Below are positions 7,815 through 45,731 of a DNA stretch of 64,000 nt, piece by piece. The notes beneath the pieces were generated by a model, which made no database searches, was not told the DNA's origin, and was given only the letters and a program-made list of their open reading frames with translations. This stretch comes from Thermoanaerobaculia bacterium. GTDB taxonomy: Bacteria; Acidobacteriota; Thermoanaerobaculia; Gp7-AA8. Every line of letters starts with the position of its first letter. The stretch's first letter is position 1. The stretch lies in NCBI GenBank assembly GCA_035525285.1, contig DATLFB010000044.1:108441-172440 (forward strand). Reading direction: 5' to 3'. Made by a program: the position numbers and the translations under genes.

Positions 7815-10800
7815 ATGTCCGTTTCACGTCGTTTGAGTTTGTTTGTGGTCCTGAGCTTGTTCGTGCTCGCGCCTGCGGCGATCGCCCAGGTCACGACAGG
7901 CAATCTCGGAGGAGAGGTGACCGCAGGGGGAGACGGCAGTGCGCTCCCCGGCGTCACGATCGAAGCAGTCCATGTTCCCACCGGAACGCGTTATGGCACG
8001 GTGAGCGGCGGCAACGGCCGGTACCTGATCCCGAACGTGCGCGTCGGCGGGCCGTACACGGTCACCGCGAATCTGTCGGGATTCCGTCCCGCCGAGGTCA
8101 CGGGCGTGAGCGTTCCGCTCGGCGGCACGACCAATGTTGCGATCAAGCTTCAGCTGGAAGCGGTGTCGGAAGCGATCACCGTGACCGCCGACGTCGATCC
8201 GATCATCAATCCGAACCGGACCGGCGCAACGTCGGCCGTGTCGGAAGAGCAGATCGAATCGCTGCCGACGGTGAATCGCAGTCTGCAGGATTTCGCGCGC
8301 ACGAATCCGTACTTCAACGTCGATCCGATCGACGCGACGTCGACGCGCATGACCGTCGCCGGCAAGAACAACCGCTACAACACCGTTCAGATCGACGGCG
8401 CGGTCAACAACGATCTGTTCGGTCTCGCCGACACGGGCACGCCGGGCGGCCAGGCGGACCTGCAGCCGATCGCGATCGATGCCATTCAGGAACTGCAGCT
8501 CGTCGTTTCACCGTATGACGTCCGCCAGGGCGGATTCACCGGCGGCGGCGTGAATGCCATCACCCGTTCCGGAACGAATGACTTCCACGGCTCCGTCTTC
8601 TACACCAAGCGCGACTCCTCGTACGTCGGCGACGGCCCTAACGAGGTCGAGGTCGACGAATTCGACTTCGAACAGTACGGCGGCCGCCTGGGAGGACCGA
8701 TCCTGCGCGACCGTCTCTTCTTCTTCGTCACCGGTGAAACGACGAAGCGTCAGGAGCCCACGGGCGTTTCCGCGGAGGCTGGCAGCCCCTCGGTGAGCGC
8801 GACGATCGCCGGTCTTGCCGCACAGGCCGCGGCGATCGCGAAGTCGAAGTATGGTTACGATCCCGGATCGCTCGGCGATTTCCCGGAGGCTCGCGACGGC
8901 GACAATCTGTTCGGCCGTCTCGACTGGAACATCGGATCGTCGCACCAACTCACGCTGCGCCACAACTACGTGGAAGGCGCCCGTGACGTCGTCTCCGACC
9001 GTTTCTTCACTCGCTTCCGCTTCGAGAGCTCGACCTACGCGTTCGCCAGCGAGACCAACTCCACGGTCGCGCAGCTGAACAGCACGTTCGGCGCAAACTC
9101 CTACAACGAGGCGCGCGTCGGACTGCAGACCATCAAAGAGCAGCGCGCGGTCCCGACGGTGTTCCCCTCCATCGAGATCGGCGGCGCACCGCGCGCCGCG
9201 CAGATCATCCTCGGCACGGAGCGTTTCTCCGGCGCCAACGCGCTCGATCAGGACATCCTCGAAGTCACCGATGACTTCACCTGGCTGCGCGGCAATCACA
9301 CCATCACCGTCGGCACCCACAACGAGTTCTTCGAGTTCAAGAACCTGTTCATGTCCGATGCGTACGGCTACTACTTCTTCCCGACCATCGCCGACTTCGA
9401 AGCCGGCAGGCCGCGCGAGTACAGCATCACGTTCGCCACGGGCAGCAATCCGCGCCGCCCGACGCAGTTCGAGGTCGCCCAGTACGGAATCTACGTGAGC
9501 GATCAGTGGCGCGTGAACGACGCCGTGGCGCTGACGATGGGCGTGCGCGCCGACATGCCGCGCTTCGCTGACACGCCGAGCCATAACCCGGCCGTCCTCG
9601 CCGCGATCGGTTTCGACACGGCCGAGACAGCGTCGGAGAGCGCAGTGATCTCGCCGCGCTTCGGCTTCAACTGGCAGCCCGGCGGCACCGGTACGCAGCA
9701 GGTTCGCGGCGGCATCGGCGTCTTTACCGGCCGCACGCCGTATGTCTGGATCTCCAACGCCTACGGCAACACGGGCGTCGAACAGGTCGCGCTGAGCTGC
9801 AGTGGCCTGGGCTGCACGCCGTTCGTGACCGATCCGCTGAACCAGCCGAGGGACTTCCCCCCCGGCACGGGCGCGTTCTCGGTCGATCTGATCGATCCCG
9901 ACTTCCAGCTCCCGCGCGTTCTCCGCGCCACGCTCGGCTACGACCGTGAGCTGTTCGCCGGCATCCGCGGCACGGCGGAAGTGGTCTGGACGAAGAACCT
10001 CGAAGATGTCTACTACCACAACGTGAACAAGGTCCAGACCGGCACGAGCCCGCTCGACGGACGTCCGCGGTACGGCAACGTCAGCACTTCCATGCGCGAT
10101 GCGATCCTGCTCACCAACACGGACAAGGGCGAGCAGCGCATTCTCTCGCTGCAGGTCAACAAGTCGTTCAGCCGCGGCTTCGCATTCTCGGCTTCCTACG
10201 CGAATCAGGACGCGAAGTCGGGCTTCGACGGAACGTCCAGCCGCGCCATTTCCAACTGGCAGTTCCACCACACCAAAGGCGACATCTTCAACGCCGAGGA
10301 ATCGCGCTCGGCGTTCGAGATCGAGCATCGCTTCACCGTGTCCACGAGCTGGAACTTCTCGACCGGCCCGGTCGGACACACGCTCGCGTTCTACTACAAC
10401 GCGCAGTCGGGCCGTCCGTACTCGCTGCTCTTCGGCACGGACATCAACGGCGACGGATACTCGACGAACGACCTGCTCTACGTCCCCGCCGCCGGCAATG
10501 TGATCATCCAGAAGAACGCCGGCTCCACGTGGTCGGCGAGCCCCGATCAGCAGTGGCTCAACTATCTCGAAGGCGCGGGGCTCGATGGGGATTGCGATTG
10601 CATTCTCGACCGCTACGCGAGCACCGAGCCGTGGTCGCGTCAGCTCGACCTGCACTACGAGCTCGGTCTCCCGGTGTACCGCGAGTTCCTCACCAACCTG
10701 ACGTTCGACGTGCTCAACGTGTTCAACATGTTCTCGAACGACAGCGGCGTCGTCCGCTTCGTGTCGAACCAGAACTTCCTGCCGGTAACGTATCAGGGTC

Positions 10801-25946: not shown

Positions 25947-25965
25947 GAAGGGGGAGTCTATCTCG

Positions 25966-26074
25966 GTTGCCCGGCTGCCCGGTTTCCCGGCGACGCCGTC
26001 CGGGTGGCGGCGCCAGACGTTGCTGAGGCGCCGGCTCCCGCGCGGCGCCGCCGGGAAGCCGGGCAACCGGGAAG
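25966..26074. repeat. octamer mirror-array element (CCGGTTGC-type units on one arm, GCAACCGG-type on the other)
   Basis: ggttgcccggctgcccggtttcccgg ... ccgggaagccgggcaaccgggaagcc. The same family occurs at 27730-27810, 31121-31212, and as a single arm at 59378-59411. Confidence 0.85.
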
Positions 26075-26077
26075 CCT

Positions 26078-26923
26078 CTACTCCTCGCCCGCCGCCCGAA
26101 TCAAATCCGCGTTGTCCTTACACTCCGACCACTCGGCGAGCTGCAGCGCGGTCGCGCCGCCGTCGGACTCGAGATCGGTCTTCGCACCGGCGCGAAGAAG
26201 CGCGCGCACGGCGTCGGTGGCGGTGCACTTGTCGGCGATCCGCATCAGCGCGGTCGTGTGGATGTCGTCCTGCGCGTTCACGTCGGCGCCGGCCTCGATG
26301 AGATACAGAACGATCGCCGGATGGCCGAACATCGCCGCACGGACGATCGCCGGCGCGCCGCCGGCCATCGTGTCCACGTCGTAGCCCGCCTGCACGAACA
26401 GCTTCACCGCGTCGAGATCGCCGGTCACCGCGCTGGAGACGAGGAACTCGGGGCCCGGCGCGGCGAAGCCCATCTCGCGCAGTTTGCGGATCGCCTCGCG
26501 CTGCTTTTCCGTCACCGGCTGAGGCCCCGGCTCCACCGGCGCCTGATCGGGATCGCCGCCGATGTCCCACAGCTCGCTGAGAATCTTCCACTTGCCGTCT
26601 TCACGCACGAACTCGATGTGTCCCGCGGATTCGGTCTCGGCGACGTTCGCAACGACGATCAACGTGGCGTCATCGCCGTCGAAGATCTCCTTGTGCATGC
26701 GGAGATCCTCTTTCGGCGAGATCACGTTCAGCGACGACAGCGCCTCTTCCTTCGACTTGTCGCGCAGCATGCGCGCCTTTCCGGCGGAGAGATGTTTCTT
26801 CGCCGCGGCGAGATCGCCGTCGTCGATCGCCTTCACGTACGACTTGTACAGAGGAAAGAGGACGTCTTCGCCGAGCGCGGGCAGCGCGATCAGAAGCGCG
26901 AGTGCGGCAGCGAGGAGTCTCAC
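26078..26923 (-). CDS. secreted ankyrin-repeat protein
   Basis: A signal peptide (MRLLAAALALLIALPALG) precedes C-terminal ankyrin repeats (TALMRIA...ALLRAGAKTD, ATALQLAE). Confidence 0.7.
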   Translation of the reverse strand: MRLLAAALALLIALPALGEDVLFPLYKSYVKAIDDGDLAAAKKHLSAGKARMLRDKSKEEALSSLNVISPKEDLRMHKEIFDGDDATLIVVANVAETESAGHIEFVREDGKWKILSELWDIGGDPDQAPVEPGPQPVTEKQREAIRKLREMGFAAPGPEFLVSSAVTGDLDAVKLFVQAGYDVDTMAGGAPAIVRAAMFGHPAIVLYLIEAGADVNAQDDIHTTALMRIADKCTATDAVRALLRAGAKTDLESDGGATALQLAEWSECKDNADLIRAAGEE

Positions 26924-27687
26924 ACCGCCTTCATCGCGAGCGAGAGGATCTCGCGGTGCGTGAAGTAGTTCACCGCCGGATCGTCGAGGTGGAACGTGTA
27001 GGTGAAGCGCTCGTCGTTGTCGGCGATGAAGGTGAAGTGGAAGTAGCGGTTCTCCGTCCCTTCACCGAACTCCTTGATGTTCGCCGCGTGCCCGCGATCC
27101 TCCTCGGCCTTCAGCACGCGATAGAGCTTGTGCGCGCTGATCGGCAGGTCGTCCGGCGGGTAGTGGATGAACTGGATCGCATAGATCGACTTCGGATCGA
27201 TCTCGCGCTGCGGGTAGTCCTGCATCGCGTCGCCCGCGACGCCGGTGAACCACGTCTCGTCTTCCTTGAAGAGGACCAAGTTCGCGGAGTTCTCGGTCAT
27301 GGGCAGCGCGCCGCGGTCGAGGTGGATGTGCTGTTCGGGGTCGGTCGCGTCACGCAGCTGCGTGAGGAGATCGATCAGGTACTGGAGGCCTTCCTTCGTG
27401 CCGGTGAAGGCGACTTCGTCGTCCTCGTCGGAGATCCAGATGTCGAGCCACGCATCCTTCGGAAGCTTGACGCGGCCTTCGAGCGCATCGCGCGTGATGG
27501 CGGCAAAGCCGAGGCGCTTCGCGGCGGCGAGCAGGAACTCGTTGCAGTGCGGATCTTCGATCAGATGCTGCCGCGCGTACTCGATCGCCGCCTCATAGGC
27601 GCCCTTGCGGCCGAAGTCGTGGCTCAGATCGAACGGGCCGATGAGCTGGTCGAGAAGCTGCGCGTGGCGCTCTGCGGGTTTGGACAT
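26920..27687 (-). CDS. hypothetical cytoplasmic protein, 255 aa; its stop overlaps the ankyrin gene start (ATGA)
   Basis: A long ORF translationally coupled to the ankyrin gene. No domain recognised. Confidence 0.55.
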   Translation of the reverse strand: MSKPAERHAQLLDQLIGPFDLSHDFGRKGAYEAAIEYARQHLIEDPHCNEFLLAAAKRLGFAAITRDALEGRVKLPKDAWLDIWISDEDDEVAFTGTKEGLQYLIDLLTQLRDATDPEQHIHLDRGALPMTENSANLVLFKEDETWFTGVAGDAMQDYPQREIDPKSIYAIQFIHYPPDDLPISAHKLYRVLKAEEDRGHAANIKEFGEGTENRYFHFTFIADNDERFTYTFHLDDPAVNYFTHREILSLAMKAV

Positions 27688-27729
27688 AGGTCAGCGTGTA
27701 AACCACCGGCAGCGTACCATATGTTCCGC

Positions 27730-27810
27730 GGGTTGCCCGGTAACCCGGTTGCCCGGTTTCCCAGTGTGTTTTTCTCCGGGCAACCGGGCGACTGGGCAAC
27801 CGGGCAACCA
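27730..27810. repeat. octamer mirror-array element (CCGGTTGC/GCAACCGG family)
   Basis: gggttgcccggtaacccggttgcccggtttcccagtgtg...ccgggcaaccgggcgactgggcaaccgggcaacc. Confidence 0.85.
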
Positions 27811-27814
27811 CACC

Positions 27815-28384
27815 TCACCCCACTGTGCGATCCCGCGCCCTCCAGTCCTTTTCCATGTCCGCGAGGAAGCTCGACAGATCGTCCGCGTGCTCCTCTTCGA
27901 CCGCCAGGATCGACTCGAGCATCCGGCGCGTGGTGATGTCGTCGTCGCCGATGTAGCGGATCATTTCCGTGTAGGAATCGATGGCCACGCGCTCGGCGAC
28001 GAGGTCTTCGCGGATCATCTCGACGAGAGTGTTTCCCTCCACGTACTCGGAGTGCGAGCGCGTCAGCAGCCCGTCGGGACTGAAGTTCGGCGAGCCGCCG
28101 AGCTGCACGATGCGCGCGGCGATCTGATCGGCGTGTCCCTGCTCTTCATTCGCATGCGTGAGGAATTCCGAGGCGATCGGATCGGCGTGGATGCCCTGGG
28201 CCATGAAGTAGTGGCGCTTGTAGCGGAGCACGCAGACGATCTCGGTCGCGAGCGCCTCGTTGAGGATCCTGATCACCGTCTCGCGGTTCGCGCGGTAGCC
28301 ATCGGTGACAGCGCCCGTCTCGATGTGCTGCCGGGCCCGGCGGCGCAACTCCTGGACGTCGGTGAGGAACGGCTTGTCGGTCAT
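27815..28384 (-). CDS. bacterioferritin-like (ferritin-like diiron) protein
   Basis: It aligns by eye to Bfr (LNEALATEIVCVLRYKRHYFMAQG, EEQGHADQIAARIVQLGG, ILAVEEEHADDL). Confidence 0.75.
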   Translation of the reverse strand: MTDKPFLTDVQELRRRARQHIETGAVTDGYRANRETVIRILNEALATEIVCVLRYKRHYFMAQGIHADPIASEFLTHANEEQGHADQIAARIVQLGGSPNFSPDGLLTRSHSEYVEGNTLVEMIREDLVAERVAIDSYTEMIRYIGDDDITTRRMLESILAVEEEHADDLSSFLADMEKDWRARDRTVG

Positions 28385-29104
28385 GTACTTCTACCTCCGG
28401 CCGCGTCCGTTGCAAACCTCAATCCGCTCCGCGGGTGCGGGTGGGTGTCGGACGTGATCGCCGCTGCACGACCGCTCGGTCGATCAGGTGCTGCGCGCGC
28501 GGCGGGTCATTGTTTCGACCCCCGGCGTCGTGCTTGGCACCGTCATCTATAATTGTCTGGCGCAACGATGGCTGTATCCCGAAGCGCTCTGGACTGGATG
28601 GCATATTGGCGAACGCAATTCCCTCAGATGTGGACCGGATCTACCGTGACTGGAACTGGTATAGGAAGCTTTGGTGGTTCCTTCATTACCTAATCGGTAG
28701 CATCGGCGTTGTTGCATCGATAACGGCAGCAAATAAGCCTCAGTTCTTGCAGGCGTTTCCTGACGTCCTGAGCGGCATTGCGTGGCTGTCGGCTCTATGT
28801 GTAACGCTGCTTGTCTTTCTGGAGCCGAAGAAGCGTGCGCGCGCTTATGCCGCGGCATGGCGGCTGCTGAATACAGAGACAGGGAGATTCCGTAACGCGC
28901 CAGCCAACACCCCACCAGCTAGCCTTTTTGACGTCATCGCGCAAGGCGAAGAGTTCATCGCGAAGCTCGATGGGTAGTTATTGCGATCATCCGTACCACG
29001 ATCCGAACGGGTCGCGTGTTTCATGGCTACTGAGTTCCGCAGACGTCGGTGAGGAACGGCTGACCAGTCCTCCCCGCCGCGCCTGTTGCAAACCGTCAAT
29101 CCGC
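28354..29104. mobile_element. low-GC islet of about 0.6 kb flanked by imperfect direct repeats of about 65 bp that duplicate the bfr 5' end and upstream region
   Basis: GACGTCGGTGAGGAACGGCT...GTTGCAAACC(T/G)TCAATCCGC occurs at 28354-28427 and again at 29042-29104. The DNA between the copies is visibly more AT-rich than its neighbours (roughly 52% versus about 68% GC). Confidence 0.6.
28603..28977 (+). CDS. small two-helix membrane protein encoded in the low-GC islet
   Basis: Two hydrophobic helices are present (WWFLHYLIGSIGVVASITAA and GIAWLSALCVTLLVFL). The start is uncertain (TTG at 28603 or GTG at about 28627). The ORF-track start at 28435 reads through the duplicated bfr upstream region and is unlikely. 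Confidence 0.4.
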   Translation: MLANAIPSDVDRIYRDWNWYRKLWWFLHYLIGSIGVVASITAANKPQFLQAFPDVLSGIAWLSALCVTLLVFLEPKKRARAYAAAWRLLNTETGRFRNAPANTPPASLFDVIAQGEEFIAKLDG

Positions 29105-30226
29105 GCCGAAGCGAGTGCGGCTCGCATCATATCTGCGCCCGCGCCATTCGAGCCGGCGCCGGACTCCCGTCAGCCAGAGCGAACGCAGCAGTATCCAGCT
29201 CCACACGCAGGTCATGAGCGGGTGGCCCAACATAGCGTTGTCGAGGCGAGAGCACCGTAGCGCGATGAAAAGAATGGAGCGACTGACACCGATGATCAGA
29301 ATCGTCGTGATGGCAACCCAGTCACCAGACAGTGCAAGGACGTATGGCAGCAAGTGAAAGATTCCGGTTAGGACTAGGAAGAAGAGAGCGATCGCGTAGT
29401 TGCGATTGAGAACCGCGAACATGTTCTTCGTGAAGCCGCGGACGATCTCGCCGAGGCCGTGGTACATCCGGACAGAGACGAAGTCGTCCGCGAGCACCAC
29501 TTCTGTGCGGAATCCGCTACGCCGGAAGAGTGAGCCCAACGCGACGTCGTCGACCACAGCCGCCTTCAGCGCTTCGTGCCCGCCGACCGTTACGTAGTCG
29601 TCGCGGCGCATGAGATTGCCCGTGCCGGCGCCAATGCCAAGGAACGGAATGCGGCTGTGGTTGACCAGCCAGAGGGGAATCATCGTGAACGCGAAGACGG
29701 CGAGGTTCGGCATCGCGATGTGCTCCCAGAAACCGTGCATCTCGAAACGCGGGAGGAGCGTGATCATCGGCAGATCGCGCTCCTCGAGGTGCGCGACCGC
29801 CGCCGCGATTGCGTCCGGCTCGTAGATCACATCGGCGTCGATGAACAGCAACAGCTCGCCGCGCGCGCGGGCACTCCCCTGCTGCAGCGCCCATGGCTTT
29901 CCGAGCCAGCCCGCCGGCGTCTCTTCGCCGTGGAGGATTGTGAGGCGCGAGTCTTCCTGGGCAACACGCGCGAGGATCTCGCCGGTCGCGTCGGTCGAGC
30001 GGTCGTCGATCACAATCACCTCGAGCGCGGGGTACGTCTGCGCGAGCAGCGCACGCACGGTGCGCTCGACGGCGCGCTCTTCATTCCGCGCGGGAACGAT
30101 CACCGAGACGAGCGGCGTGCGCTCGGGCATCCGGGGGCGGAGGCGTGGAACGAGGAGCAGATTGAGGATGGTGCGGCCGAGGGCGAGGAGCCAGGTAAAG
30201 AGGATGAGCCAAGCTAGCGCGCGCAT
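29096..30226 (-). CDS. membrane glycosyltransferase family 2
   Basis: Contains VSVIVPARNEE and VIVIDDRSTD (DxD), with multiple C-terminal TM helices. Confidence 0.8.
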   Translation of the reverse strand: MRALAWLILFTWLLALGRTILNLLLVPRLRPRMPERTPLVSVIVPARNEERAVERTVRALLAQTYPALEVIVIDDRSTDATGEILARVAQEDSRLTILHGEETPAGWLGKPWALQQGSARARGELLLFIDADVIYEPDAIAAAVAHLEERDLPMITLLPRFEMHGFWEHIAMPNLAVFAFTMIPLWLVNHSRIPFLGIGAGTGNLMRRDDYVTVGGHEALKAAVVDDVALGSLFRRSGFRTEVVLADDFVSVRMYHGLGEIVRGFTKNMFAVLNRNYAIALFFLVLTGIFHLLPYVLALSGDWVAITTILIIGVSRSILFIALRCSRLDNAMLGHPLMTCVWSWILLRSLWLTGVRRRLEWRGRRYDASRTRFGAD

Positions 30227-30227
30227 G

Positions 30228-30322
30228 AGGTTCGAGGTTCGAGGTTCGAGGTTCGAGGTCAGAATGAAGAGGCAGTCTCTCTCTTCATTCGTCCTTCGAA
30301 CCTCGCACCTCGAACCTCGGCT
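30228..30322. repeat. mirror tandem-array hairpin: (GAGGTTC)x5, a spacer, then GAACCTC units
   Basis: gaggttcgaggttcgaggttcgaggttcgaggtc...ccttcgaacctcgcacctcgaacctcgg. Confidence 0.9.
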
Positions 30323-31045: not shown

Positions 31046-31120
31046 GGGAGAGAAAAGCCTCCGTGCGAAGAGCGGGAACTCTGGTTCGTCCGCGCGCAAC
31101 CGTCAACGTCTCAGGAGGAT

Positions 31121-31212
31121 TCCCGGTTGCCCGGTTGCCCGGTTGCCCGGTTGCCCGGTAGCCCGGTAAGCGGCACACTGGGAAACCGGGCGACTGGGCA
31201 ACCGGGCAACTC
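31121..31212. repeat. octamer mirror-array element (CCGGTTGC/GCAACCGG family), in the opposite orientation to the copy at 27730
   Basis: cccggttgcccggttgcccggttgcccggttgcccggtagcccggtaagcggcacactgggaaaccgggcgactgggcaaccgggcaac. The core cacactggg here is the reverse complement of cccagtgtg at 27760. Confidence 0.85.
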
Positions 31213-37342: not shown

Positions 37343-37584
37343 CGAGCCCTCCTCTCACACGGGTCGACGTGATCACGCATACCACGAAGTTCCACATCAC
37401 CGACACCGGACTTCCTTTTTTCCTACGCAGCGATGCTTCATATTCGCCTGTTCGTGAGATCGTCGCGTCACTATCCTGTCACGACCGGCTCAGAGCGTGA
37501 CCCAAGTGTACCCATTCGCCGGGTCAGTTTCTGATTGCTTCGGTGAGATGAATGCCCACAAGTAAAGAAAGGAAAAAGCTCGCG

Positions 37585-39180
37585 ATGCGTAAGACCCTTT
37601 TGTTCCTTTGTACGGTCCTGCTTGCCGTTCCCATGTTCGCCGCGAACGGAGGCAACCAGGATCTCGAACGTTACATCGTCGTGTTCAAAAACGGGCTCGG
37701 TCCCGACGCGCACGCCGCGCTCCGCGGATCCGGGGCGATCACCGCGCTGGAACTGCCGGATCATCGAGCGGCTGCCGCGTACATGAGGCCGCAGGCGGCC
37801 GAGGCGCTGGCGAGAAACCCGAACGTCGAGCTCGTCGAAGTCGATGCGAAACGGTATCCGCTCGCGTGGACGAACACCAGCTCGGGCGGGGAGACGACGC
37901 CGTACGGCATCAAAGCGGTGGAAGCGAACCTTTTCAGCGCCGGTGCCGGGATCGGCTCGTGTACCGTCTGCATCATCGACTCCGGGTACTTCATTCAGCA
38001 CGACGATCTTCAGGATTCACCAGTCGTCGGAGCCCCGCAGGGGACCGAGAATGTGTTCGAAGATGGTTGCGGTCACGGCAGCCACGTTGCCGGCACGATC
38101 TCGGCGATCACCGGCAATGGCGTGGGCGTGTCGAGCGTCAACGGCGGCCGGAACCTCAATCTGGTCATCTCCCGCGTGTTCGACAACAACTGCTCCTGGG
38201 CCTTCGCCTCGAGCCTGATCAAGGCGCTCGACGCCTGCAAGGCCAAGCGCGGCTCGAACAAGATGGTCGTGAGCATGAGCCTCGGCGGAAGCTTCAAGAG
38301 CCGCACCGAGGATCAGGCGTTTGCGAAGGCCTACAACGAAGGCATTCTCTCCATCGCCGCCGCTGGCAACGGCGGCAACACACAGACCTCGTATCCGGCG
38401 GGCTACACGTCGGTCGTGTCCGTCGCCGCGATCGACGCCAACGAAGCTCTCGCCAGCTTCTCGCAGCGCAACAAGGACGTCGAGATCGCCGCACCCGGCG
38501 TCTCGGTCCTCTCGACCGTTCCCTGGAAGGGATCCTCGATCACCGTTGACTCAGTCAAATACCTCGGCAGCCACATCGCCAGTTCCGCCACCACCGACGG
38601 CGTCTCGGGCGCGCTGGTCAGCGGCGGCCTCTGCGACACGGTCGGAAGCTGGAGCGGGAAAACCGTCCTCTGTCAGCGCGGCACGATCAGCTTCAAGCAG
38701 AAGATCGACAACGTCACCGCCGGCGGCGGCGTCGCGGCTGTGATCTACAACAACGTCTCCGGGGGATTCGCCGGCACGTGCGACGACGGTTCGGGCACGA
38801 CCTGCTCCGGCGTCGGCATCGGCATCAGCAAGGAAGACGGCGAATTTCTGGTGGGGAACAAGCTCGGACTGACGGGTACGACCGTGGCGTCGCTCAGCAC
38901 CGACTGCGGCGACGGCAAGGCGGTCGCTTGCGGTTATGAGGCATGGGACGGGACGTCAATGGCCACCCCGCACGTTTCGTCCGTCGCGGCGCTGATCTGG
39001 AGTCATGACACCTCAAAGACCAACGCCCAGGTCCGCGATACAATGAACAAGACGGCGAAGGATCTCGGCTCCGCCGGCCGCGACAACAGCTTCGGCTACG
39101 GCCTCGTGAAAGCGCTCCGCGCGAGGGATTGCCTGCTGGGCACTGGCCCGTGCACACCGTCCACCGCTCCTCTCCCGTAG
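37585..39180 (+). CDS. secreted subtilisin-like serine protease (S8) with I9 propeptide and PA-domain insertion
   Basis: Signal peptide ends ...FAANG. An I9-like segment (YIVVFKNG) is followed by the catalytic D/H/S motifs ([19 protein letters not shown]). The PA-like insert is at about 360-440 aa. Confidence 0.85.
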   Translation: MRKTLLFLCTVLLAVPMFAANGGNQDLERYIVVFKNGLGPDAHAALRGSGAITALELPDHRAAAAYMRPQAAEALARNPNVELVEVDAKRYPLAWTNTSSGGETTPYGIKAVEANLFSAGAGIGSCTVCIIDSGYFIQHDDLQDSPVVGAPQGTENVFEDGCGHGSHVAGTISAITGNGVGVSSVNGGRNLNLVISRVFDNNCSWAFASSLIKALDACKAKRGSNKMVVSMSLGGSFKSRTEDQAFAKAYNEGILSIAAAGNGGNTQTSYPAGYTSVVSVAAIDANEALASFSQRNKDVEIAAPGVSVLSTVPWKGSSITVDSVKYLGSHIASSATTDGVSGALVSGGLCDTVGSWSGKTVLCQRGTISFKQKIDNVTAGGGVAAVIYNNVSGGFAGTCDDGSGTTCSGVGIGISKEDGEFLVGNKLGLTGTTVASLSTDCGDGKAVACGYEAWDGTSMATPHVSSVAALIWSHDTSKTNAQVRDTMNKTAKDLGSAGRDNSFGYGLVKALRARDCLLGTGPCTPSTAPLP

Positions 39181-39203
39181 TCAGATCCATTCGTGAAATC
39201 GCA

Positions 39204-39234
39204 GACGCCCGGCGGAAACGCCGGGCGTTTTTTG
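39204..39234 (+). terminator. rho-independent terminator
   Basis: gacgcccggcg-gaaa-cgccgggcg followed by tttttt. Confidence 0.8.
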
Positions 39235-39516
39235 TTGGTGCGCTTTCATGGGAGCCGCTGCAACCGCAGCTTCTCGATCGCCGACGATTCACTTCCGATG
39301 TTCCGACAGGAGCGCTTCCAATCGAGGGGTTGCGATATGACCCGCCTGAGCGTGTATTGACCCACTTTTGCGGCTCATTCATGCAAAAAGAATTAACTTC
39401 TGACCCTTGCGGATTTCTTCGTCGCAGCCAAATCGTTTCTTTACAAGCACATGCTTTATGGCGTGATGCTTGCCTCGGGCGGGACCTCGTCTGAAAGTAG
39501 ATGGAGGGTAAAAGGA

Positions 39517-41100
39517 ATGAGAAGGCTTTTCATTACGGTGATCCTGTTGGGCGTCGTTCCGGCAATCGCGCAGAATGGCAACGCGAATGGGCGCGCGCTG
39601 GAGGCGTCGATGGCACACTTCAACGCGAATGCACGGGCGTATGGGCTTACGAATCCGCAGGCGGAGTTGAAGGTGCGTAATGCTCTCCGCGATTCGCTCG
39701 GCCAGACACACGTTCGCTTCGATCAATACTACGAAGGCGTCCGTGTGTTCGAAGGGCAGGCGATCAGTCACGTCGACGGCAAAGGCCGCGTATCCTCGGT
39801 CACGAACGCCATCCGCGGCAACTTGAGAATCAGTACGACGCCGTCGGTCTCGGAATCGACTGCAACGGCGAAGGCGCTTGCAGCGGTCAATGCCCTCGGC
39901 GGAGCGTCGGCCACCGCAACGCTCGAGATTCTGCCCGAGGGACAGCGCAGTTCCATCGACCGCCTGGTCTGGCACGTGGTCGTCGAGGTGGAGAACGACG
40001 CCCAGGACCGCGGCCAGTGGGATTACTTCGTCGATGCAAACAGCGGCGACGTGGTGTGGTCGTTCGACTCGCTCGAGACGAGCAACGCCACGGGAACCGG
40101 CCGCACGCAGTATCTCGGCGACCAGAGCGCCAGCCTCGACCTCGTCAGCGGCACTTATTATCTGCGCGACGTCTCGCGCAGCAGCGGTAACTACACGTGT
40201 GACAAGAACAACAAGACCAACGCGCCGCAGTGCACGGTCTTCTCCAATACGTCGGGCATCTTCGGCGATGGCGTGCTCGATGGAAGCAACCGAGGGACGA
40301 GCGCGGCGGACGCGCACGTCGGCCTGCAGTACACCTGGGACTACTACAAACTGGTCCTCGGCCGCAATGGAATCGACGGTTCCGGCACGAGGAGCTATTC
40401 GCGCGTGCACTACGGCAGCAACTACAACAACGCCTTCTGGAGCGATAGCTGCTTCTGCATGACGTACGGCGACGGCTCGGGCACGCCGGGCGGAACGTCC
40501 GGTTTCCTTCCCCTCGTCTCGATCGACGTCGCCGGGCACGAGATGACCCACGGCGTGACCAGTACGACCGCCGATCTGACGTATTCGGGAGAGTCGGGCG
40601 GTCTCAACGAGTCGACTTCCGATATCTTCGGAACGATCGTCGAGTTCTATGCGAACAGCGCGAAGGACGCTCCCGACTATCTGATCGGCGAAATGATCTA
40701 TCCCTCGAACTGGAACACGGACGGAACCTGGAAGAACCTTTCCTCGCCGAAGGCCCTTCGCTACATGACGCAGCCGTCGCTCGACGGAAAGAGCCCGAAC
40801 TGCTGGTCCAGCGGGATCGGCAGTCTGGACGTCCACTACTCATCGGGCCCGAACAATCACATGTTCTATCTTCTGTCCAAGGGCGGCACCAGCGCCTGCA
40901 ATGGGAACGTCGTGGGCGCCATCGGCAACGACGCCGCGGCCAGAATCTGGTACCGCGCGCTGACCGTGTATATGACTTCGTCGACGAACTATGCCGGCGC
41001 GCGCCAGGCCGCTTTGAAAGCAGCGACCGATCTGTATGGGACGGGCTCGACCCAATACAACGGCGTGGCGGCGGCATTCTCTGCGATCAACGTGAACTGA
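39517..41100 (+). CDS. secreted thermolysin-like metalloprotease (M4) with FTP/PepSY propeptide
   Basis: A GGAGGG Shine-Dalgarno precedes the start. Signal peptide ends ...AIAQNG. Propeptide contains HVRFDQYYEGVRVFEG. The catalytic motifs HEMTHGV and ESGGLNESTSDIFG are present. Confidence 0.85.
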   Translation: MRRLFITVILLGVVPAIAQNGNANGRALEASMAHFNANARAYGLTNPQAELKVRNALRDSLGQTHVRFDQYYEGVRVFEGQAISHVDGKGRVSSVTNAIRGNLRISTTPSVSESTATAKALAAVNALGGASATATLEILPEGQRSSIDRLVWHVVVEVENDAQDRGQWDYFVDANSGDVVWSFDSLETSNATGTGRTQYLGDQSASLDLVSGTYYLRDVSRSSGNYTCDKNNKTNAPQCTVFSNTSGIFGDGVLDGSNRGTSAADAHVGLQYTWDYYKLVLGRNGIDGSGTRSYSRVHYGSNYNNAFWSDSCFCMTYGDGSGTPGGTSGFLPLVSIDVAGHEMTHGVTSTTADLTYSGESGGLNESTSDIFGTIVEFYANSAKDAPDYLIGEMIYPSNWNTDGTWKNLSSPKALRYMTQPSLDGKSPNCWSSGIGSLDVHYSSGPNNHMFYLLSKGGTSACNGNVVGAIGNDAAARIWYRALTVYMTSSTNYAGARQAALKAATDLYGTGSTQYNGVAAAFSAINVN

Positions 41101-41479
41101 TCGCTGCTCTCCGCGAAACGAGGAGGGGCTCCCAATGGGAGCCCCTTGTCGTCTGCGCGTACCGCGCCGGGCGTTTCTCACTTCCCCGCCATGATACTTC
41201 CTGTTTTCTTACACGTGCCGTGATGAGCCCTGACGGCGGCGCTCAGTACGGCGGTCGTGTATTGGCGCACAAATGGACCCACTTGCGCATCCATTGATCC
41301 ACCATATCGTGCATTTTCGGGCCAAATAGCGCAACGCCTGACCCATCTCGCCGACGTCGTGAAAATGCTCGATGCGCCTAAGTGAGTGTGGCTCAATGAG
41401 TTGGATGCTTTTTCACCGAATGGGCGCCGCATCCGCTAAGTCGAATCGCCCGAAAGCAACGTGGAAGGAGCATCAATTC

Positions 41480-43123
41480 ATGAAACGAGTCCTCATCATG
41501 GCCCTGGCAGTATTGATGACGCCAGTTGTATTCGCGTCGAACGGAGAGATCCGGCGGAACAGCCGGGCGATCAAAGATCAGTACATCGTCGTGTTCAGGG
41601 CCGGCGCTGTGCGTGATGTGCCGGCGGCCGCGGCGGAGATGGCGCGGATGAACGGCGGCCGGCTGGGCCATGTGTACAGCCGGGCGTTGCAGGGATTTTC
41701 CGTCGAACTGTCCGAAGGCCGGGCCCGCGCGCTCGCGAAGGATCCCCGCGTGGAGTACGTGGAAGAGGACGGCCAGGTGACGCTCGGGGCGACGCAGAGC
41801 AACGCCACCTGGGGACTCGACCGCATCGACCAGCGCGATCTGCCGCTGAGCGGTAGCTATACGTACAACTACACCGGCTCGGGAGTGAAGGCCTACATCA
41901 TCGACACCGGGATCCTGGCCTCGCACAACGAGTTCGGCGGCCGGGTGGTCAGCGGTTACACCGCCATCAGCGACGGCCGGGGCACGACCGACTGCAACGG
42001 CCACGGCACGCACGTCGCGGGCACGGTGGGCGGCGCGACGTACGGCGTGGCCAGGAGCGTGACTCTCGTTCCGGTGCGCGTGCTGGACTGCAACGGATCG
42101 GGCACGAATTCCGGCGTGATCGCGGGCGTCGACTGGGTCACGTCCAATCACGGCGCGGGCCAGCCCGCCGTCGCGAACATGTCGCTGGGCGGCGGGGCCA
42201 GCTCGGCGCTCGATACCGCCGTCAACAACTCCATCAACGACGGCGTGACCTACGCCGTGGCGTCGGGCAACGACAATAAAGACGCCTGCAACTACTCGCC
42301 GGCGCGCGTGGCTGCCGCGATCACCGTCAACTCCAGCACCTCGTCGGACGCGCGCTCCTCGTTCTCGAACTGGGGCACGTGCACGGACATCTTCGCTCCG
42401 GGCTCGAGCATCACTTCCGCGTGGTACACGAGCAACACCGCGACGAACACGATCAGCGGCACGTCGATGGCCACGCCTCACGTGGCCGGCGTCGGTGCGC
42501 TGTATCTCCAGTCCAACACAAGCGCCTCGCCATCGACGGTCTGGGCGGCGATCCGCGACAGCGCGACACTGAACAAGATCACCAGCGCCGGGAGCGGCTC
42601 GCCGAACCGCCTGCTCTACTCGCTTCTCAGCAGCGGCGGAGGCGGCACGACCACGCAGCTTCTGAGCAACCCGGGATTCGAGTCGGGCAACAACGGCGCC
42701 TGGACCACGACCTCCGGCGTGATCACGAATTCCACCTCGCGCACGCCGCAGGCCGGCTCGTGGTACGCATGGCTCTGCGGCTACGGTTCCTCGCATACCG
42801 ATTACGCCTACCAGCAGATCTCGATCCCGTCGGGTGCCACCGCGGCGACTCTGAATTTCTATCTGAAGATCGACACGGCCGAGACGACCACGAGCACGGC
42901 GTACGACAAGATGTCGGTGCAGATTCTCAACTCCTCCGGGAGCCTTCTGGCGACTCTGGCGACGTATTCGAATCTGAACAAGAGCTCGTCCTATTCGCTC
43001 AAATCCTTCGACCTCCTCGCGTACAAGGGGCAGACCATCCGGGTCCGCTTCTACGCGACGGAGGACAGCATCTACCAGACTTCGTTCCTCGTCGACACGA
43101 CATCACTGAACGTGACCCAGTAA
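41480..43123 (+). CDS. secreted subtilisin-like serine protease (S8) with a C-terminal beta-sandwich domain
   Basis: A GGAAGGAG Shine-Dalgarno precedes the start. Signal peptide ends ...FASNG. I9 segment (YIVVFRAG), then HGTHVAGT and [11 protein letters not shown]. About 170 extra C-terminal residues. Confidence 0.85.
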
Positions 43124-43191
43124 GTCAATCAACAACCGACTGACCCGCCTGAAGCGGCAGTCAACAGTCAACAGCAGGAGGATGTATCGCT

Positions 43192-44451
43192 ATGCACGGG
43201 AAAAAGTCCAGGTTGATCGTCATCTCCATCGTGGTTCTCTCCGCCGTCATCTCATCTGCACTCTGGGCGCAGTCACGTTCCGACGATCGTGAATTCACCC
43301 CGCGTGTCCGTCAGGAAGTGACTCTGCCGGTCATCGTGGTCCTGCGCGACGACGTGACGGTTCAGGCCAGTACGCCAGTCGACGTGATGCTCGATGAACG
43401 GGCCGTCGCCGCGCCCGAGGCCTGGTCCTATCTGAGCGCATCGGTGGTGGGCAGCGTCCGGTCGCTGGAGAATAGTCACGGATTCAAGGCCGAGCACGTC
43501 TACAGCGCGGCCCTGCGCGGTTTCTCGGCCCGGTTGTCGGCCCGGCAGATCGAGGCGCTGGAGCTCGATCCTCGCGTCGATTACATCGAGCCCGATGGAA
43601 CGATGCACATCATCGCCCAGACTCTTCCCTGGGGCATCGACAAGATCGACGCCGACGTCAGCTCCACTCTGGCCGGCAACGGCAGCGGAGCGATCACGAA
43701 CGTCAACGCCTATGTCATCGATACGGGCATCGATACCCACACGGATCTCAACCTGGTCGGGCACGTGAATTTCGCCGGCGGTCCGAACAAGGACTGCAAC
43801 GGTCACGGCACGCATGTGGCCGGAACGGTGGCGGCGAAGGACAACACGCAGGACGTGGTCGGCGTGGCGCCGGGCGCACCGCTGACCGGCGTGAAAGTCC
43901 TCGGCTGCGGCGGGAGCGGCACGACCTCGGGCGTGATCAAAGGCGTCGACTGGGTCACCGCGAACGCCAAAAAGCCGGCCGTGGCGAACATGTCCCTCGG
44001 CGGCAGTGCGAGCACGGCTCTCGATGACGCCGTTCGCAACTCGGCGAACAGCGGCGTGTTCTACGCCCTGGCCGCCGGCAATGACGGTGCCGACGCCTGC
44101 AACTCGTCGCCGGCACGCGCCGGTGCGGGAACCAATAACGGCATCATGACCGTTGCCGCGACCGACAGCGCCGACAAGGAAGCCTCCTGGAGCAACTACG
44201 GCAACTGCGTCGACATCTGGGCGCCCGGCGTGAGCATCCTCTCCACGAAGAAGGGCGGCGGCACCACCACGCTGTCCGGTACGTCGATGGCTTCGCCGCA
44301 CGGCGCGGGCGGCGGCGCGCTGTATCTCTCATCGCATACGGGTGCCAGCCCGTCCACGGTCGAAGGCGCGCTCAAGAGCGCGGCCACGACCACGGCCAAC
44401 AAGAGCAAAGACGGCCGGACCATCACCCGCGAGAATGTCGGCAGCTTCTGA
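43192..44451 (+). CDS. secreted subtilisin-like serine protease (S8)
   Basis: An AGGAGG Shine-Dalgarno precedes the start. A signal peptide is followed by HGTHVAGT and GTSMASPHGAG. Confidence 0.85.
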   Translation: MHGKKSRLIVISIVVLSAVISSALWAQSRSDDREFTPRVRQEVTLPVIVVLRDDVTVQASTPVDVMLDERAVAAPEAWSYLSASVVGSVRSLENSHGFKAEHVYSAALRGFSARLSARQIEALELDPRVDYIEPDGTMHIIAQTLPWGIDKIDADVSSTLAGNGSGAITNVNAYVIDTGIDTHTDLNLVGHVNFAGGPNKDCNGHGTHVAGTVAAKDNTQDVVGVAPGAPLTGVKVLGCGGSGTTSGVIKGVDWVTANAKKPAVANMSLGGSASTALDDAVRNSANSGVFYALAAGNDGADACNSSPARAGAGTNNGIMTVAATDSADKEASWSNYGNCVDIWAPGVSILSTKKGGGTTTLSGTSMASPHGAGGGALYLSSHTGASPSTVEGALKSAATTTANKSKDGRTITRENVGSF

Positions 44452-44591
44452 TTCTGACCACGTCGAATACACGTACCCCATCGAGCGGCGGCTCCCGCGA
44501 AGGAGCCGCCGCAGGGGCCTGTGGATCCGGCGGAAGCGAGGAAGAACGGCGCACCGTGCCGGCTCCCCACAACTGAGAGAGGAGCACATTA

Positions 44592-45731
44592 ATGAAGCGA
44601 TTCACGACCATCGTCCTGACATTTTTCTTCACCGTTCCCATCCTGGCCGGCAACGGCGATTTTCGCCGCGCCGGCGGAAAAGCAATCAAGGGTCAATACA
44701 TCGTAGTGCTCGAAGATCACGTCGCCGACGTTCGCGGTGCGGCGGCCGTGCTCTCGCGCATGCACGGCGGCGACGTCGGCTACGTTTATGAGAGCGCGCT
44801 GCGAGGCTACTCGGTGCGAATGCCGGAAATGGCCGCGCGCGGACTGGCCCACGACCCGTACGTCAAGTACGTCGAAGAGGACGGCGAGGTGTCGATCAAC
44901 ACGACCCAGACGTCGCCCGTCTGGGGCCTGGACCGGATCGATCAGCGCAATTTGCCTTTGAGCAATTCGTTCACGTACACGTACACGGGAAGCGGGGTTC
45001 GCGTGTACGTCATCGATACCGGCATTCGAACGTCTCACGGCGAGTTCGAAGGCCGTGCTTCACGGGTCTACGACGCCTTTGGCGGCAACGGCAGCGATTG
45101 CAACGGTCACGGAACGCACGTGGCCGGGACGGTGGGCGGAAAGACCTATGGCGTTGCCAAGAAGGCCTATCTTCGCGCCGTGCGCGTTCTCGACTGCGGC
45201 GGATCCGGTACGTGGTCTCAGATCATTGCGGGCGTGGACTGGGTGAGGGCCAATCACATCAAGCCGGCCGTTGCAAACATGAGCCTGGGCGGCGGAGCCA
45301 ACAGCTCGGTCGACACGGCCGTCAATAATCTGATCAACGCCGGAGTCACCGTGGTCGTCGCCGCGGGAAACAGCAACGCCAATGCCTGTAACTACTCGCC
45401 CGCTCGCGTAGGAGCGGCAATCACGGTCGGCTCGACTACGTCGACGGACGCCCGCTCTTCGTTCTCCAACTACGGCTCGTGCCTTGATCTTTTCGCACCC
45501 GGCTCGAGCATCAAGTCGGCGTGGTACACGAGCGACACGGCGACGAACACGATCAGCGGAACATCGATGGCATCCCCTCACGCAGCCGGCGTCGCGGCGC
45601 AGTATCTCCACCGTTTCGGCAACCAGTCTCCGTCCACGGTGCGCAATGCGCTGGTCAACAACGCAACGAGCGGAGTTTTATCGAGTATCGGAAGCGGATC
45701 GCCGAACCGCCTTCTCTTCACCAATTACTAA
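44592..45731 (+). CDS. secreted subtilisin-like serine protease (S8), close paralog of 41480-43123
   Basis: Signal peptide ends ...LAGNG. I9 segment (YIVVLEDHV), then GHGTHVAGT and GTSMASPHAAG. Confidence 0.85.
   Translation: MKRFTTIVLTFFFTVPILAGNGDFRRAGGKAIKGQYIVVLEDHVADVRGAAAVLSRMHGGDVGYVYESALRGYSVRMPEMAARGLAHDPYVKYVEEDGEVSINTTQTSPVWGLDRIDQRNLPLSNSFTYTYTGSGVRVYVIDTGIRTSHGEFEGRASRVYDAFGGNGSDCNGHGTHVAGTVGGKTYGVAKKAYLRAVRVLDCGGSGTWSQIIAGVDWVRANHIKPAVANMSLGGGANSSVDTAVNNLINAGVTVVVAAGNSNANACNYSPARVGAAITVGSTTSTDARSSFSNYGSCLDLFAPGSSIKSAWYTSDTATNTISGTSMASPHAAGVAAQYLHRFGNQSPSTVRNALVNNATSGVLSSIGSGSPNRLLFTNY

Follow-up and report, generated by a model that had tools for sequence, protein, structure and literature searches.

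A 601-bp piece of foreign DNA lies between the genes for a glycosyltransferase (GT2) and a ferritin-like protein (bfr) of a Thermoanaerobaculia genome, with a diverged copy of the junction between these genes on either side. In our judgement there is about an even chance that this islet is a horizontally acquired single-gene insert that entered by an att-like, Campbell-type integration and is now a remnant carrying a SLATT-like effector with two transmembrane (2TM) helices. It is a very clean natural case of a foreign gene in a tight operon junction with both neighbours undamaged, and the documented empty site in 22 relatives, together with readable junction copies, makes it useful for studying the origin of integrase-less islets. 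Small genomic islets, att-like duplications of gene ends and mobile SLATT genes are already known, so current views stand, and the islet represents a clean but fairly ordinary horizontal gene acquisition.

The islet and the duplicated junction

The features of the locus are listed below, numbered within the window, the whole stretch of 64,000 nucleotides that was analysed.

27815–28384, minus strand: ferritin-like ('bfr'/Dps-like) gene, 189 aa (Pfam Ferritin PF00210, E=2.9e-26)
28355–28440: direct-repeat copy 1, 86 nt, bfr side (alignment of the repeat copies)
28355–28374: perfect 20-mer GACGTCGGTGAGGAACGGCT, bfr codons 4–10, identical at 20/20 positions to 29042–29061
28441–29041: islet-specific DNA, 601 bp, unmatched at all 22 related loci and in the window outside the islet
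28606–28977, plus strand: stand-alone SLATT-like 2TM gene, 123 aa, TTG start (alignment with 12 homologues)
28999–29014, plus strand: weak terminator-like hairpin, a consensus match only, 22 nt past the stop codon of the small gene
29042–29120: direct-repeat copy 2, 79 nt, GT2 side (alignment of the repeat copies)
29096–30226, minus strand: GT2 glycosyltransferase gene, 376 aa, HpnB/CruG-like (below cut-offs), with its 3′ end inside copy 2

The islet consists of a 165-nt leader, one gene and a 64-nt tail, and its 601 bp between the repeat copies agree with the ~0.6 kb first estimated from the sequence. A GC plot bore out the expectation that this DNA is richer in AT than its surroundings: the GC content of 28500–29000 is 0.557 vs. 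a window mean of 0.654 (500-nt windows, sd 0.035), within the lowest 0.6% of such windows, and the window minimum of 0.552 falls inside the islet. The leftmost ~90 nt (28441–28530) are GC-rich. By eye, a perfect TATAAT box is present at 28549–28554; a sigma-70 promoter scan of the islet returned no match. Two terminator-like sites were found in the region, compared with 0.8 expected. In blastn and tblastx comparisons with the relatives and with the window outside the islet, the non-coding islet DNA gave chance-level matches only, and an Rfam search of 27600–29400 found nothing in the islet. The matches that Rfam did return in this interval were spurious miRNA hairpins on a REP-like palindrome. 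A tRNA-targeted island was rejected, as the window holds no tRNA or tmRNA genes.

The flanking direct repeats are real and significant, though longer (79–86 nt) than the 65 bp of the original prediction, and imperfect. A blastn comparison of flank with flank gave a 78-nt alignment at 79.5% identity (E=1.3e-7). The Smith-Waterman score for 28355–28440 against 29042–29120 is 29.5, compared with 9.1 ± 1.1 for 500 shuffles (maximum 14) and a maximum of 23 for 205 genomic pairs at equal spacing. The copies start 687 bp apart, close to the ~690 bp proposed. They take in the GT2 end (last eight codons and stop, ~24 nt), the spacer of 35 nt and bfr codons 1–10; the 10 bfr codons and ~40 nt upstream that had been noticed initially are both included, and the end of GT2 has to be added to them. 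The junction duplicated by the insertion therefore amounts to ~86 bp.

Within each copy, the half needed by the adjoining gene is intact and the other half is degenerate. Copy 1, into which the ferritin-like gene extends by 10 codons, supplies the bfr ribosome-binding site (RBS), ATG and codons 1–10 in native-like form along with the 35-nt spacer, and its GT2 3′ end has decayed, reading RTR-GAD* after a 3-nt deletion and two substitutions (native GT2, RTRFGAD*). Copy 2 supplies the GT2 C-terminus, retaining the native last eight codons and stop. Its spacer has a 1-nt insertion and 2–3 substitutions, and a 12-nt deletion takes out the RBS spacer and the ATG, followed by three substitutions and then the perfect 20-mer. 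In the repeat search the match beyond the 20-mer resumes past an 11–12-nt indel, and in the alignments the outer edge of the 20-mer is an abrupt end of homology. On the islet side of copy 1, the GT2 pseudo-3′ end could not be traced past 28440, where the Smith-Waterman alignment stops and where codons compared by eye are at background identity.

The two diverged copies also bear on whether the islet was created by assembly or binning, through a chimeric join of foreign reads. The window does correspond to a metagenome-assembled genome (MAG). However, an assembler cannot make two diverged junction copies, each with its own indels, around an insert; the 20-nt identity is shorter than assembler k-mer sizes, and the contig, 180.7 kb long, continues beyond the islet in both directions with normal synteny. 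We regard an artefact as highly improbable.

The small membrane protein and its relatives

The islet contains a single conserved ORF, antisense to GT2-bfr transcription, and its product matches the two-helix membrane protein of ~120 aa that had been predicted as the only one encoded: it has 123 residues, with hydrophobic helices at residues 22–43 and 50–73 by hydropathy. Alignment with homologues favours the TTG at 28606 as the best start, while the NCBI annotation begins at the GTG at 28630 (115 aa). The window copy has all 35 invariant columns of a 13-sequence alignment (A2), and the family shows dN of 0.18–0.33 with saturated dS, and for these reasons we consider the small ORF a real gene. 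The AlphaFold2 (AF2) model has a pLDDT of 97.5, with helices at residues 7–43, 52–72, 74–96 and 105–122, and the protein is predicted to be N-in/C-in, with a cytoplasmic helical hairpin after its two TM helices. Fold searches with this protein returned generic helical bundles only, and no solved structure was found among its relatives.

The SMODS- and SLOG-associating 2TM effector (SLATT) domains are described by NCBIfam SLATT_1 and SLATT_4 and by Pfam SLATT_1 and DUF4231, and the superfamily takes in CBASS 2TM effectors and the SLATT proteins of DRT10/UG17, AbiA, RADAR and related systems. The window protein scored 19.2 bits against NCBIfam SLATT_1 (E about 1e-3, 9e-4), under the curated cut-off of 41 bits, and matched the PADLOC CBASS '2TM effector' at E=1.5e-3; Pfam returned no SLATT match. 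A profile search starting from the family collected 426 clusters. Among 121 of these that were sampled, 75 matched SLATT_1 (best 3.6e-9), 55 matched SLATT_4, 15 matched Pfam DUF4231 and 14 matched Pfam SLATT_1 (profiles NCBIfam NF033634/NF033632, Pfam PF18181 and PF14015). By profile similarity, then, remote relatives link the window protein transitively to SLATT, of which it would be a divergent member.

Several properties fit this placement. The protein is small, and cytoplasmic helices come after its two TM helices. Its family is found in accessory regions rich in toxin-antitoxin (TA) and Abi genes, and the gene behaves as a mobile 'plug-in' gene, as do those for SLATT proteins, pore-forming effectors that have been called 'highly mobile and adaptable' (PMC9226505). 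In contrast to the superfamily, members of the close family share a strongly conserved signature of their own (WW.LHYLIG, FLEP+KRARAY.AAWR.L and a C-terminal GEE.IAKLDG), and in contrast to SLATT systems with an adjoining nucleotide-generating or RT partner, no signal-generating partner (SMODS/CD-NTase, SLOG, RT, NTase or mCpol) was found within ±8 kb of the islet or at eight other loci. The islet defines a rare, strongly conserved and always stand-alone SLATT-like 2TM branch, raising the question of how cells keep a potentially membrane-toxic effector in check when no partner is encoded in cis.

The SLATT/2TM effectors of CBASS, DRT10, Hailong and Panoptes offer an analogy: like them, the protein may be a toxin-like or abortive-infection effector that, once triggered, oligomerises and depolarises the inner membrane or makes it permeable. 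Read-through from the GT2-to-bfr operon could, speculatively, damp expression of the small gene. The cargo had been described as holin-like or toxin-like, and it does resemble class II holins in being small, with two TM helices, a predicted N-in/C-in topology and a charged C-terminus. Its profile relatives, however, are SLATT proteins, and neither it nor its relatives matched a holin family in Pfam; neither an endolysin nor a phage context is present, and phage and viral collections gave no matches, so we rejected a holin and refined the description to a stand-alone, divergent SLATT-type 2TM protein. A sub-threshold match to Pfam 7TMR-DISM was also set aside, being judged to reflect the hydrophobic composition of TM segments.

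The family is rare, conserved and without a fixed gene neighbour. Searching databases with the membrane protein yielded 12 close homologues in 5.8 billion proteins, and a search of 185,579 species genomes yielded one match, in another phylum, in a Rhodopila (Alphaproteobacteria) MAG. The Rhodopila gene likewise lies in a low-GC islet (0.50 vs. 0.65), within a TA/Abi island. Around the eight other distinct loci with the gene (L001, L002, L083, L085, L087/L088, L095, L096 and short fragments), no conserved partner gene was found, and the neighbours are unrelated (FG-GAP, NHL, TA, Abi and unknown proteins). No flanking direct repeats were found around other family members, whose contigs are short, and DNA similarity among members ends at the coding sequence, with no conserved element ends. 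Collections of plasmids, phages and viral contigs, searched with the islet DNA and the protein, gave no match. These three negative results count against the reading of the islet that we favour.

The empty site and the case for insertion

The genes adjoining the islet within about ±8 kb are housekeeping or conserved-synteny genes, and those at the locus form a conserved row, TPR-GT2-ferritin-Imm32-like. The ferritin-like protein is 100% identical to a Thermoanaerobaculia MAG protein at NCBI. The label bacterioferritin was rejected for it, since it scores 52.9 bits against TIGR00754 (cut-off 125.55), and ferritin-like/Dps-like is used instead.

When the bfr-to-GT2 interval was compared in related genomes, as had been suggested, all 22 loci with TPR-GT2-bfr synteny proved to have an empty site, with the small gene absent and 5–45 nt between the GT2 stop and the bfr ATG. 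Seventeen of these are JGI metagenome loci (bfr 79–88% identical at the amino acid level, TPR-GT2-bfr(-Imm32) synteny). The spacer is 33–35 nt in the four closest bfr relatives (L091–L094, 93–95% aa identity) and 35 nt in the closest GT2 relative (L097, 81%), all of them empty. The ancestral state was a GT2 stop, 33–35 nt and a bfr ATG. None of the 22 carries an alternative cargo at this junction.

Had the small gene instead been inherited vertically, it would have been lost precisely in every sampled relative, and the repeat would be the by-product of a local duplication. In favour of this reading, even the closest relatives sampled lie at some distance (dS 0.5–0.7). Against this, the empty spacers of the closest relatives match the repeat copies base for base, and the gene differs in composition from its surroundings: its GC is 0.554 and its GC3 0.63, vs. 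0.67–0.92 in the other genes called in the window (~50, from a GC3-based gene call) and 0.82–0.89 in the genes neighbouring the islet. Family members elsewhere have GC3 values of 0.48–0.65 (mean about 0.58), and the nearest homologue is 72% identical and sits in an unrelated context. We consider an ancestral arrangement very unlikely. The empty sites, the foreign composition and a family whose contexts differ and extend to another phylum argue for insertion with target duplication over vertical inheritance, in agreement with the original prediction.

Routes of insertion

In the reading we favour at about even chance, a small circular DNA would have borne a homeologous, att-like copy of the GT2|bfr junction. 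It may have been a minimal element, or else a larger integrative one that deletions have since reduced to its cargo. A single (Campbell-type) crossover with the chromosome, catalysed by RecA or by a site-specific recombinase supplied in trans, would then have duplicated the junction, leaving attL- and attR-like repeats. Att-type recombination is favoured by the perfect 20-mer with its abrupt edge on one side and ~85% homeology on the other, and the 20-mer at 28355–28374 is, from its sequence, a candidate crossover core. An analogous arrangement that counts for such recombination is seen at L002, where an integrase-less TA module lies between duplicated ABC-F 3′ ends; neither a third copy of the ABC-F 3′ end nor an integrase was found at that locus.

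Neither the islet nor the stretch of about 8 kb on each side of it holds an integrase or other recombinase, and since none remains, the islet should be immobile or a remnant that is at most mobilisable in cis. Nor did we find a second islet at a GT2|bfr site or a larger parent element. An integrative-element remnant, as initially suggested, is compatible with the flanking repeats and empty sites; with neither an integrase nor a related element or second occurrence in hand, it is a source that we infer. An IS, MITE or transposon was rejected: there is no transposase ORF, the repeat search found no terminal inverted repeats pairing the islet ends, and the duplication is 79–86 bp vs. 2–15 bp. That length far exceeds any transposase target duplication known to us, which is a further point for att-type recombination.

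A one-off illegitimate duplicative insertion is a possible, though tentative, alternative, in which break repair or MMBIR-like template switching acted without any element-encoded mobility. Once past bfr codon 10, synthesis would have switched to a foreign template for ~600 nt and then returned to the chromosome ~86 nt upstream; the junction copies would have been identical at first, and their unneeded halves then lost by neutral decay. Consistent with this, neither a recombinase nor terminal inverted repeats, conserved element ends or a second occurrence were found, and the degenerate parts coincide exactly with the non-functional halves. Indeed, retention of the useful half of each copy is equally predicted by simple target duplication and neutral decay. 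The distribution of changes is less easily accommodated, with none in 20 nt beside three in 10 nt and a 12-nt deletion, but each such unevenness has P ~0.1 and is weak. The duplicated gene ends at L002, which belongs to an unrelated genome, also hint at a recurrent process. To our knowledge, duplications as long as ~86 bp have rarely been documented for illegitimate insertion in bacteria, which counts further against it.

If integration was of the att type, the closest known counterparts are CIMEs, decayed elements that keep attL and attR and have lost their integration genes (PMC5704250). Like these, the islet has flanking, target-duplicating repeats, lacks an integration gene and occupies a site that is empty in relatives, and tandem duplication of gene ends recurs at L002. 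Unlike them, it spans only 0.6 kb with one gene, its target is an intergenic junction including the 5′ end of a gene rather than a tRNA or gene 3′ end, its repeats are ~80% identical, and no parent ICE/IME, cognate integrase or evidence of excision was found. It likewise resembles islets at core-gene hotspots in that its gene is small, compositionally deviant, patchy and placed between conserved core genes; unlike at such hotspots, the GT2|bfr site is empty in the relatives and holds no other cargo. A bolder idea, which we think doubtful, is that the islet and a Rhodopila PIN/HTH toxin-antitoxin pair exemplify a new class of minimal, recombinase-less, single-module cassettes, which would enter at gene boundaries by way of the ~80–400 bp homeologous junctions they carry and would rebuild both flanking genes. 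If it were true, such cassettes would rely on host recombination or an unlinked integrase to mobilise them in trans, and would offer defence and toxin genes a general route into the core operons of soil bacteria.

The ~10% of substitutions, plus indels, that each unneeded half has gathered agrees with the time elapsed, as judged from the dS to the nearest relatives and a modest rise of GC3 from the family mean to the value seen here, and this fit counts for illegitimate insertion; GC3 amelioration and repeat divergence do not separate the two mechanisms. A point in favour of att-type recombination is Thr codon 2 of bfr, which reads ACT in copy 2, as in L091 and L097, and ACC in copy 1, as in L092 and L093.

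The insertion site in related genomes

The islet lies between two host genes:

30226..29096, minus strand: GT2 glycosyltransferase gene, upstream of the ferritin-like gene
28384..27815, minus strand: ferritin-like gene (bfr), 189 aa

The second was originally named bfr, a label we keep: the product is ferritin-like (Pfam Ferritin, E=2.9e-26) but falls below the TIGR00754 bacterioferritin cut-off. In the window 711 nt separate the two genes. A JGI metagenome scan with the ferritin-like protein gave 80 loci, which were probed by tblastn using five proteins of the window (TPR, GT2, bfr, Imm32-like and the small one). TPR-GT2-bfr(-Imm32-like) synteny is common to 17 of them (bfr 79-88% amino acid identity), with the bfr ATG 5-45 nt from the GT2 stop, and tblastn found the small gene in none of the 17. 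Spacers measure 33-35 nt on contigs L091-L094, which carry the protein-database homologues closest to bfr (93-95% aa), and 35 nt on L097, which carries the homologue closest to GT2 (81% aa). The site is empty in all 22 related loci recovered. Vertical inheritance of the small gene would need 22 precise losses and is not credible. As bfr dS is 0.49-0.74, these relatives are not very close and the gain is not finely datable.

Other differences were seen around this site. At L003 (444-2033; bfr 88% aa) the GT2 gene is missing and the TPR gene ends ~290 nt upstream of bfr. A subclade of relatives (L009-L011, L019, L021 and L022) has, between bfr and the Imm32-like gene, a gene for a trypsin-like protease (HtrA/DegP-type, GNSGGPL motif) with host-like GC, which neither the window nor its closest relatives contain. 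GT2 (29096-30226) is far more diverged than the adjoining ferritin-like gene (27815-28384) against the same relatives (dN 0.26-0.27, 64-66% aa vs. dN 0.035-0.044, 93-95% aa).

The islet is, as predicted, more AT-rich than its flanks. GC of 28500-29000 is 0.557, in the lowest 0.6% of 500-nt windows (mean 0.654, sd 0.035), and the window minimum, 0.552, sits inside the islet. The contrast is sharper at synonymous positions: the small gene has a GC3 of 0.63, its neighbours have 0.82-0.89, and the full set of ~50 genes called across the window spans 0.67-0.92; family members elsewhere have 0.48-0.65. The leftmost ~90 nt are GC-rich, and comparison with relatives and the rest of the window did not trace their source. 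The remaining low-GC windows hold genes with host-like GC3, chiefly a protease gene cluster. This row of five secreted-protease genes (37552-45731, plus strand) encodes one thermolysin (M4) and four subtilases (S8), of which three have I9 propeptides and one a PA domain; GC1 is unusually low in all five genes (0.53-0.60) and accounts for several of these windows.

The flanking repeats and the mode of arrival

The original prediction described 65-bp flanking direct repeats. These are genuine, but longer and imperfect. The 20-mer GACGTCGGTGAGGAACGGCT is present without mismatch (20/20) at both 28355-28374 and 29042-29061. Past an indel the match resumes; blastn of the two flanks gives 79.5% identity over 78 nt (E=1.3e-7). 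By Smith-Waterman the limits are 28355-28440 (86 nt) and 29042-29120 (79 nt). The score of 29.5 exceeds both 500 shuffles (9.1 +/- 1.1, maximum 14) and 205 same-spacing window segment pairs (maximum 23), so the similarity is significant.

Both copies were aligned with the junctions of the closest relatives. There the GT2 gene ends in RTRFGAD* (CGC ACN CGC TTC GGC GCG GAT TGA), a 33-35 nt spacer follows (GGTTTGCAAC...GGAGG.AGAAGTAC), and bfr begins MTDKPFLTDV (ATG ACC GAC AAG CCG TTC CTC ACC GAC GTC). In copy 1, adjoining bfr, the spacer, RBS, ATG and codons 1-10 are all native-like, and the GT2 end is degenerate (CGCACCCGC---GGAGCGGATTGA), with no homology left upstream. Copy 2, adjoining GT2, keeps the GT2 end intact. 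The spacer in this copy differs by 2-3 substitutions and one inserted nucleotide, the RBS spacer and ATG are lost to a 12-nt deletion, and three substitutions in codons 2-4 precede the perfect 20-mer, beyond which homology ends abruptly. Each copy therefore retains exactly the half that its adjoining gene needs. The match to the native junction, the empty relatives and the GC3 of the small gene bear out an insertion that duplicated its target.

The islet has no terminal inverted repeats, transposase or integrase; neither a recombinase nor a SLATT partner was found within about +/-8 kb, and the window has no tRNA genes. To our knowledge, every known transposase makes target duplications far shorter than 79-86 bp, a length typical of att duplications from Campbell-type integration. 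In such an event the chromosomal site would have recombined with an element-borne homeologous copy of the GT2-bfr junction. The abrupt edge at the perfect 20-mer, with ~85% homeology opposite, fits this, as does the Thr codon 2 difference between copies (ACT/ACC), since both are natural allelic variants in relatives. Somewhat less likely is an illegitimate insertion, duplicative and one-off: retention of the useful halves is equally expected if an ~86-bp target duplication arose at insertion and then decayed, and ~10% decay fits the time available. We favour att-like integration, giving it about an even chance; the islet would then be a remnant comparable to a CIME (PMC5704250).

A stand-alone SLATT-like protein

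The conserved reading frame is ORF 28435..28977. Twelve homologues (58-72% identity, 115-128 aa), when aligned with it, place the start at TTG 28606; the resulting MANAIPSDV agrees with the family N-terminus M-x(1-6)-N-x-I-P-x-D-V. The NCBI annotation, a hypothetical protein in a Thermoanaerobaculia MAG, is a shorter form from GTG 28630. All 35 invariant columns of the 13-sequence alignment are present, and dN against other members is 0.18-0.33 (dS saturated); the gene is live and under purifying selection. As predicted, the product is a small two-helix membrane protein (123 aa, hydrophobic helices at residues 22-43 and 50-73, basic residues flanking on both cytoplasmic sides). An AlphaFold2 model from a 121-sequence alignment has four helices (pLDDT 97.5), and structure searches returned nothing informative.

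Direct profile matches are weak, both to NCBIfam (SLATT_1 E=1e-3, 19 bits, cut-off 41; SLATT_4 E=0.025) and to the PADLOC CBASS '2TM effector' models (E=1.5e-3 and 4e-3). Searching 1.84 billion representatives with a profile gave 426 clusters at E<=1e-3, mostly 110-190 aa. Because a sample of 121 of these relatives matches SLATT profiles (SLATT_1 in 75, best 3.6e-9; SLATT_4 in 55; Pfam DUF4231 in 15; Pfam SLATT_1 in 14), we place the protein, by transitive homology, in a putative divergent, stand-alone branch of the SLATT superfamily, which recasts the earlier suggestion of a holin-like or toxin-like cargo. The literature describes SLATT/2TM proteins as 'highly mobile and adaptable' effectors that form pores or channels in the membrane and serve CBASS, DRT10/UG17, AbiA, RADAR and related systems (PMC9226505; PMC13276650). 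HalA, from the Hailong system, acts as an ion channel in the membrane and causes depolarisation of the cell (PMC13276650).

The close family is rare (12 clusters among 5.8 billion proteins). Among 185,579 species-representative genomes the one match is a Rhodopila MAG (Alphaproteobacteria, a different phylum), where the gene is likewise a low-GC islet (0.50 vs. 0.65), in a toxin-antitoxin/Abi island downstream of an ABC-F gene. Neighbours differ on all other contigs (ParE/PemK/PIN toxin-antitoxin genes, FG-GAP, NHL-repeat and unknown proteins), no conserved partner was found around family members, and DNA similarity ends at the CDS ends. The plasmid, phage and viral-contig collections searched contained no member. 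The Rhodopila locus (L002) also contains:

8470-9580 (CAJATU010000158.1): PIN/HTH toxin-antitoxin module

Like the islet, this 1.2-kb module is bracketed by a duplication, here of the ABC-F 3' end, and has no integrase, none being found in 10 kb beyond the gene. The second copy is degenerate and internally deleted (7958-8341 vs. 9577-9710; 83-93% identity). The module directly adjoins the SLATT-like gene islet (9989-10366), an Abi/PD-T4-5-like gene, MazEF and an MNT gene.

Possible consequences for the host, and neighbouring features

In relatives GT2 and bfr, on the same strand, are probably co-transcribed. The window bfr retains its RBS, with an opposite-strand gene now between it and GT2. 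Its transcription would depend on GT2 read-through across the islet, which would yield antisense RNA to the SLATT-like gene, or on a new promoter in 28441-28600. A sigma-70 consensus scan of the islet detected no promoter; the small gene has a TATAAT box upstream, at 28549-28554. A small genomic islet with att-like repeats and a stand-alone SLATT-like 2TM cargo are both of known kinds, and the islet is a tidy example that will not surprise specialists. It would carry wider weight only if recombinase-less, junction-carrying cassettes prove a general class.

Directly downstream of the ferritin-like gene are genes for an Imm32 (polymorphic-toxin immunity) domain protein (26920-27687, minus strand) and an ankyrin-repeat protein (26078-26923, minus strand), kept in most relatives with long enough contigs; with no toxin gene visible, the conserved pairing is odd. 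The GT2-TPR intergenic region (30227-30319) holds a hairpin of tandem heptamers (CGAGGTT)n and their inverted copy (arms 39 nt, complementarity 87%). REP-like intergenic palindromes, tandem 8-nt units GGCAACCG with their complement, occur at:

25965-26076
27731-27809
31117-31211
59378-59408
1525-1563 (variant)

The window has 23 matches to GGCAACCGGGCAACC with up to 2 mismatches (0.14 expected), and the 15-mer has no exact match in 96 related loci. Between bfr and the Imm32-like gene lie 127 nt, vs. 43-60 nt in L091/L092, so the palindromes look like a repeat family that is lineage-specific and expanding. Folding of the copy after bfr gives -61 kcal/mol (z=-6.8), and this copy attracts spurious miRNA matches in Rfam.
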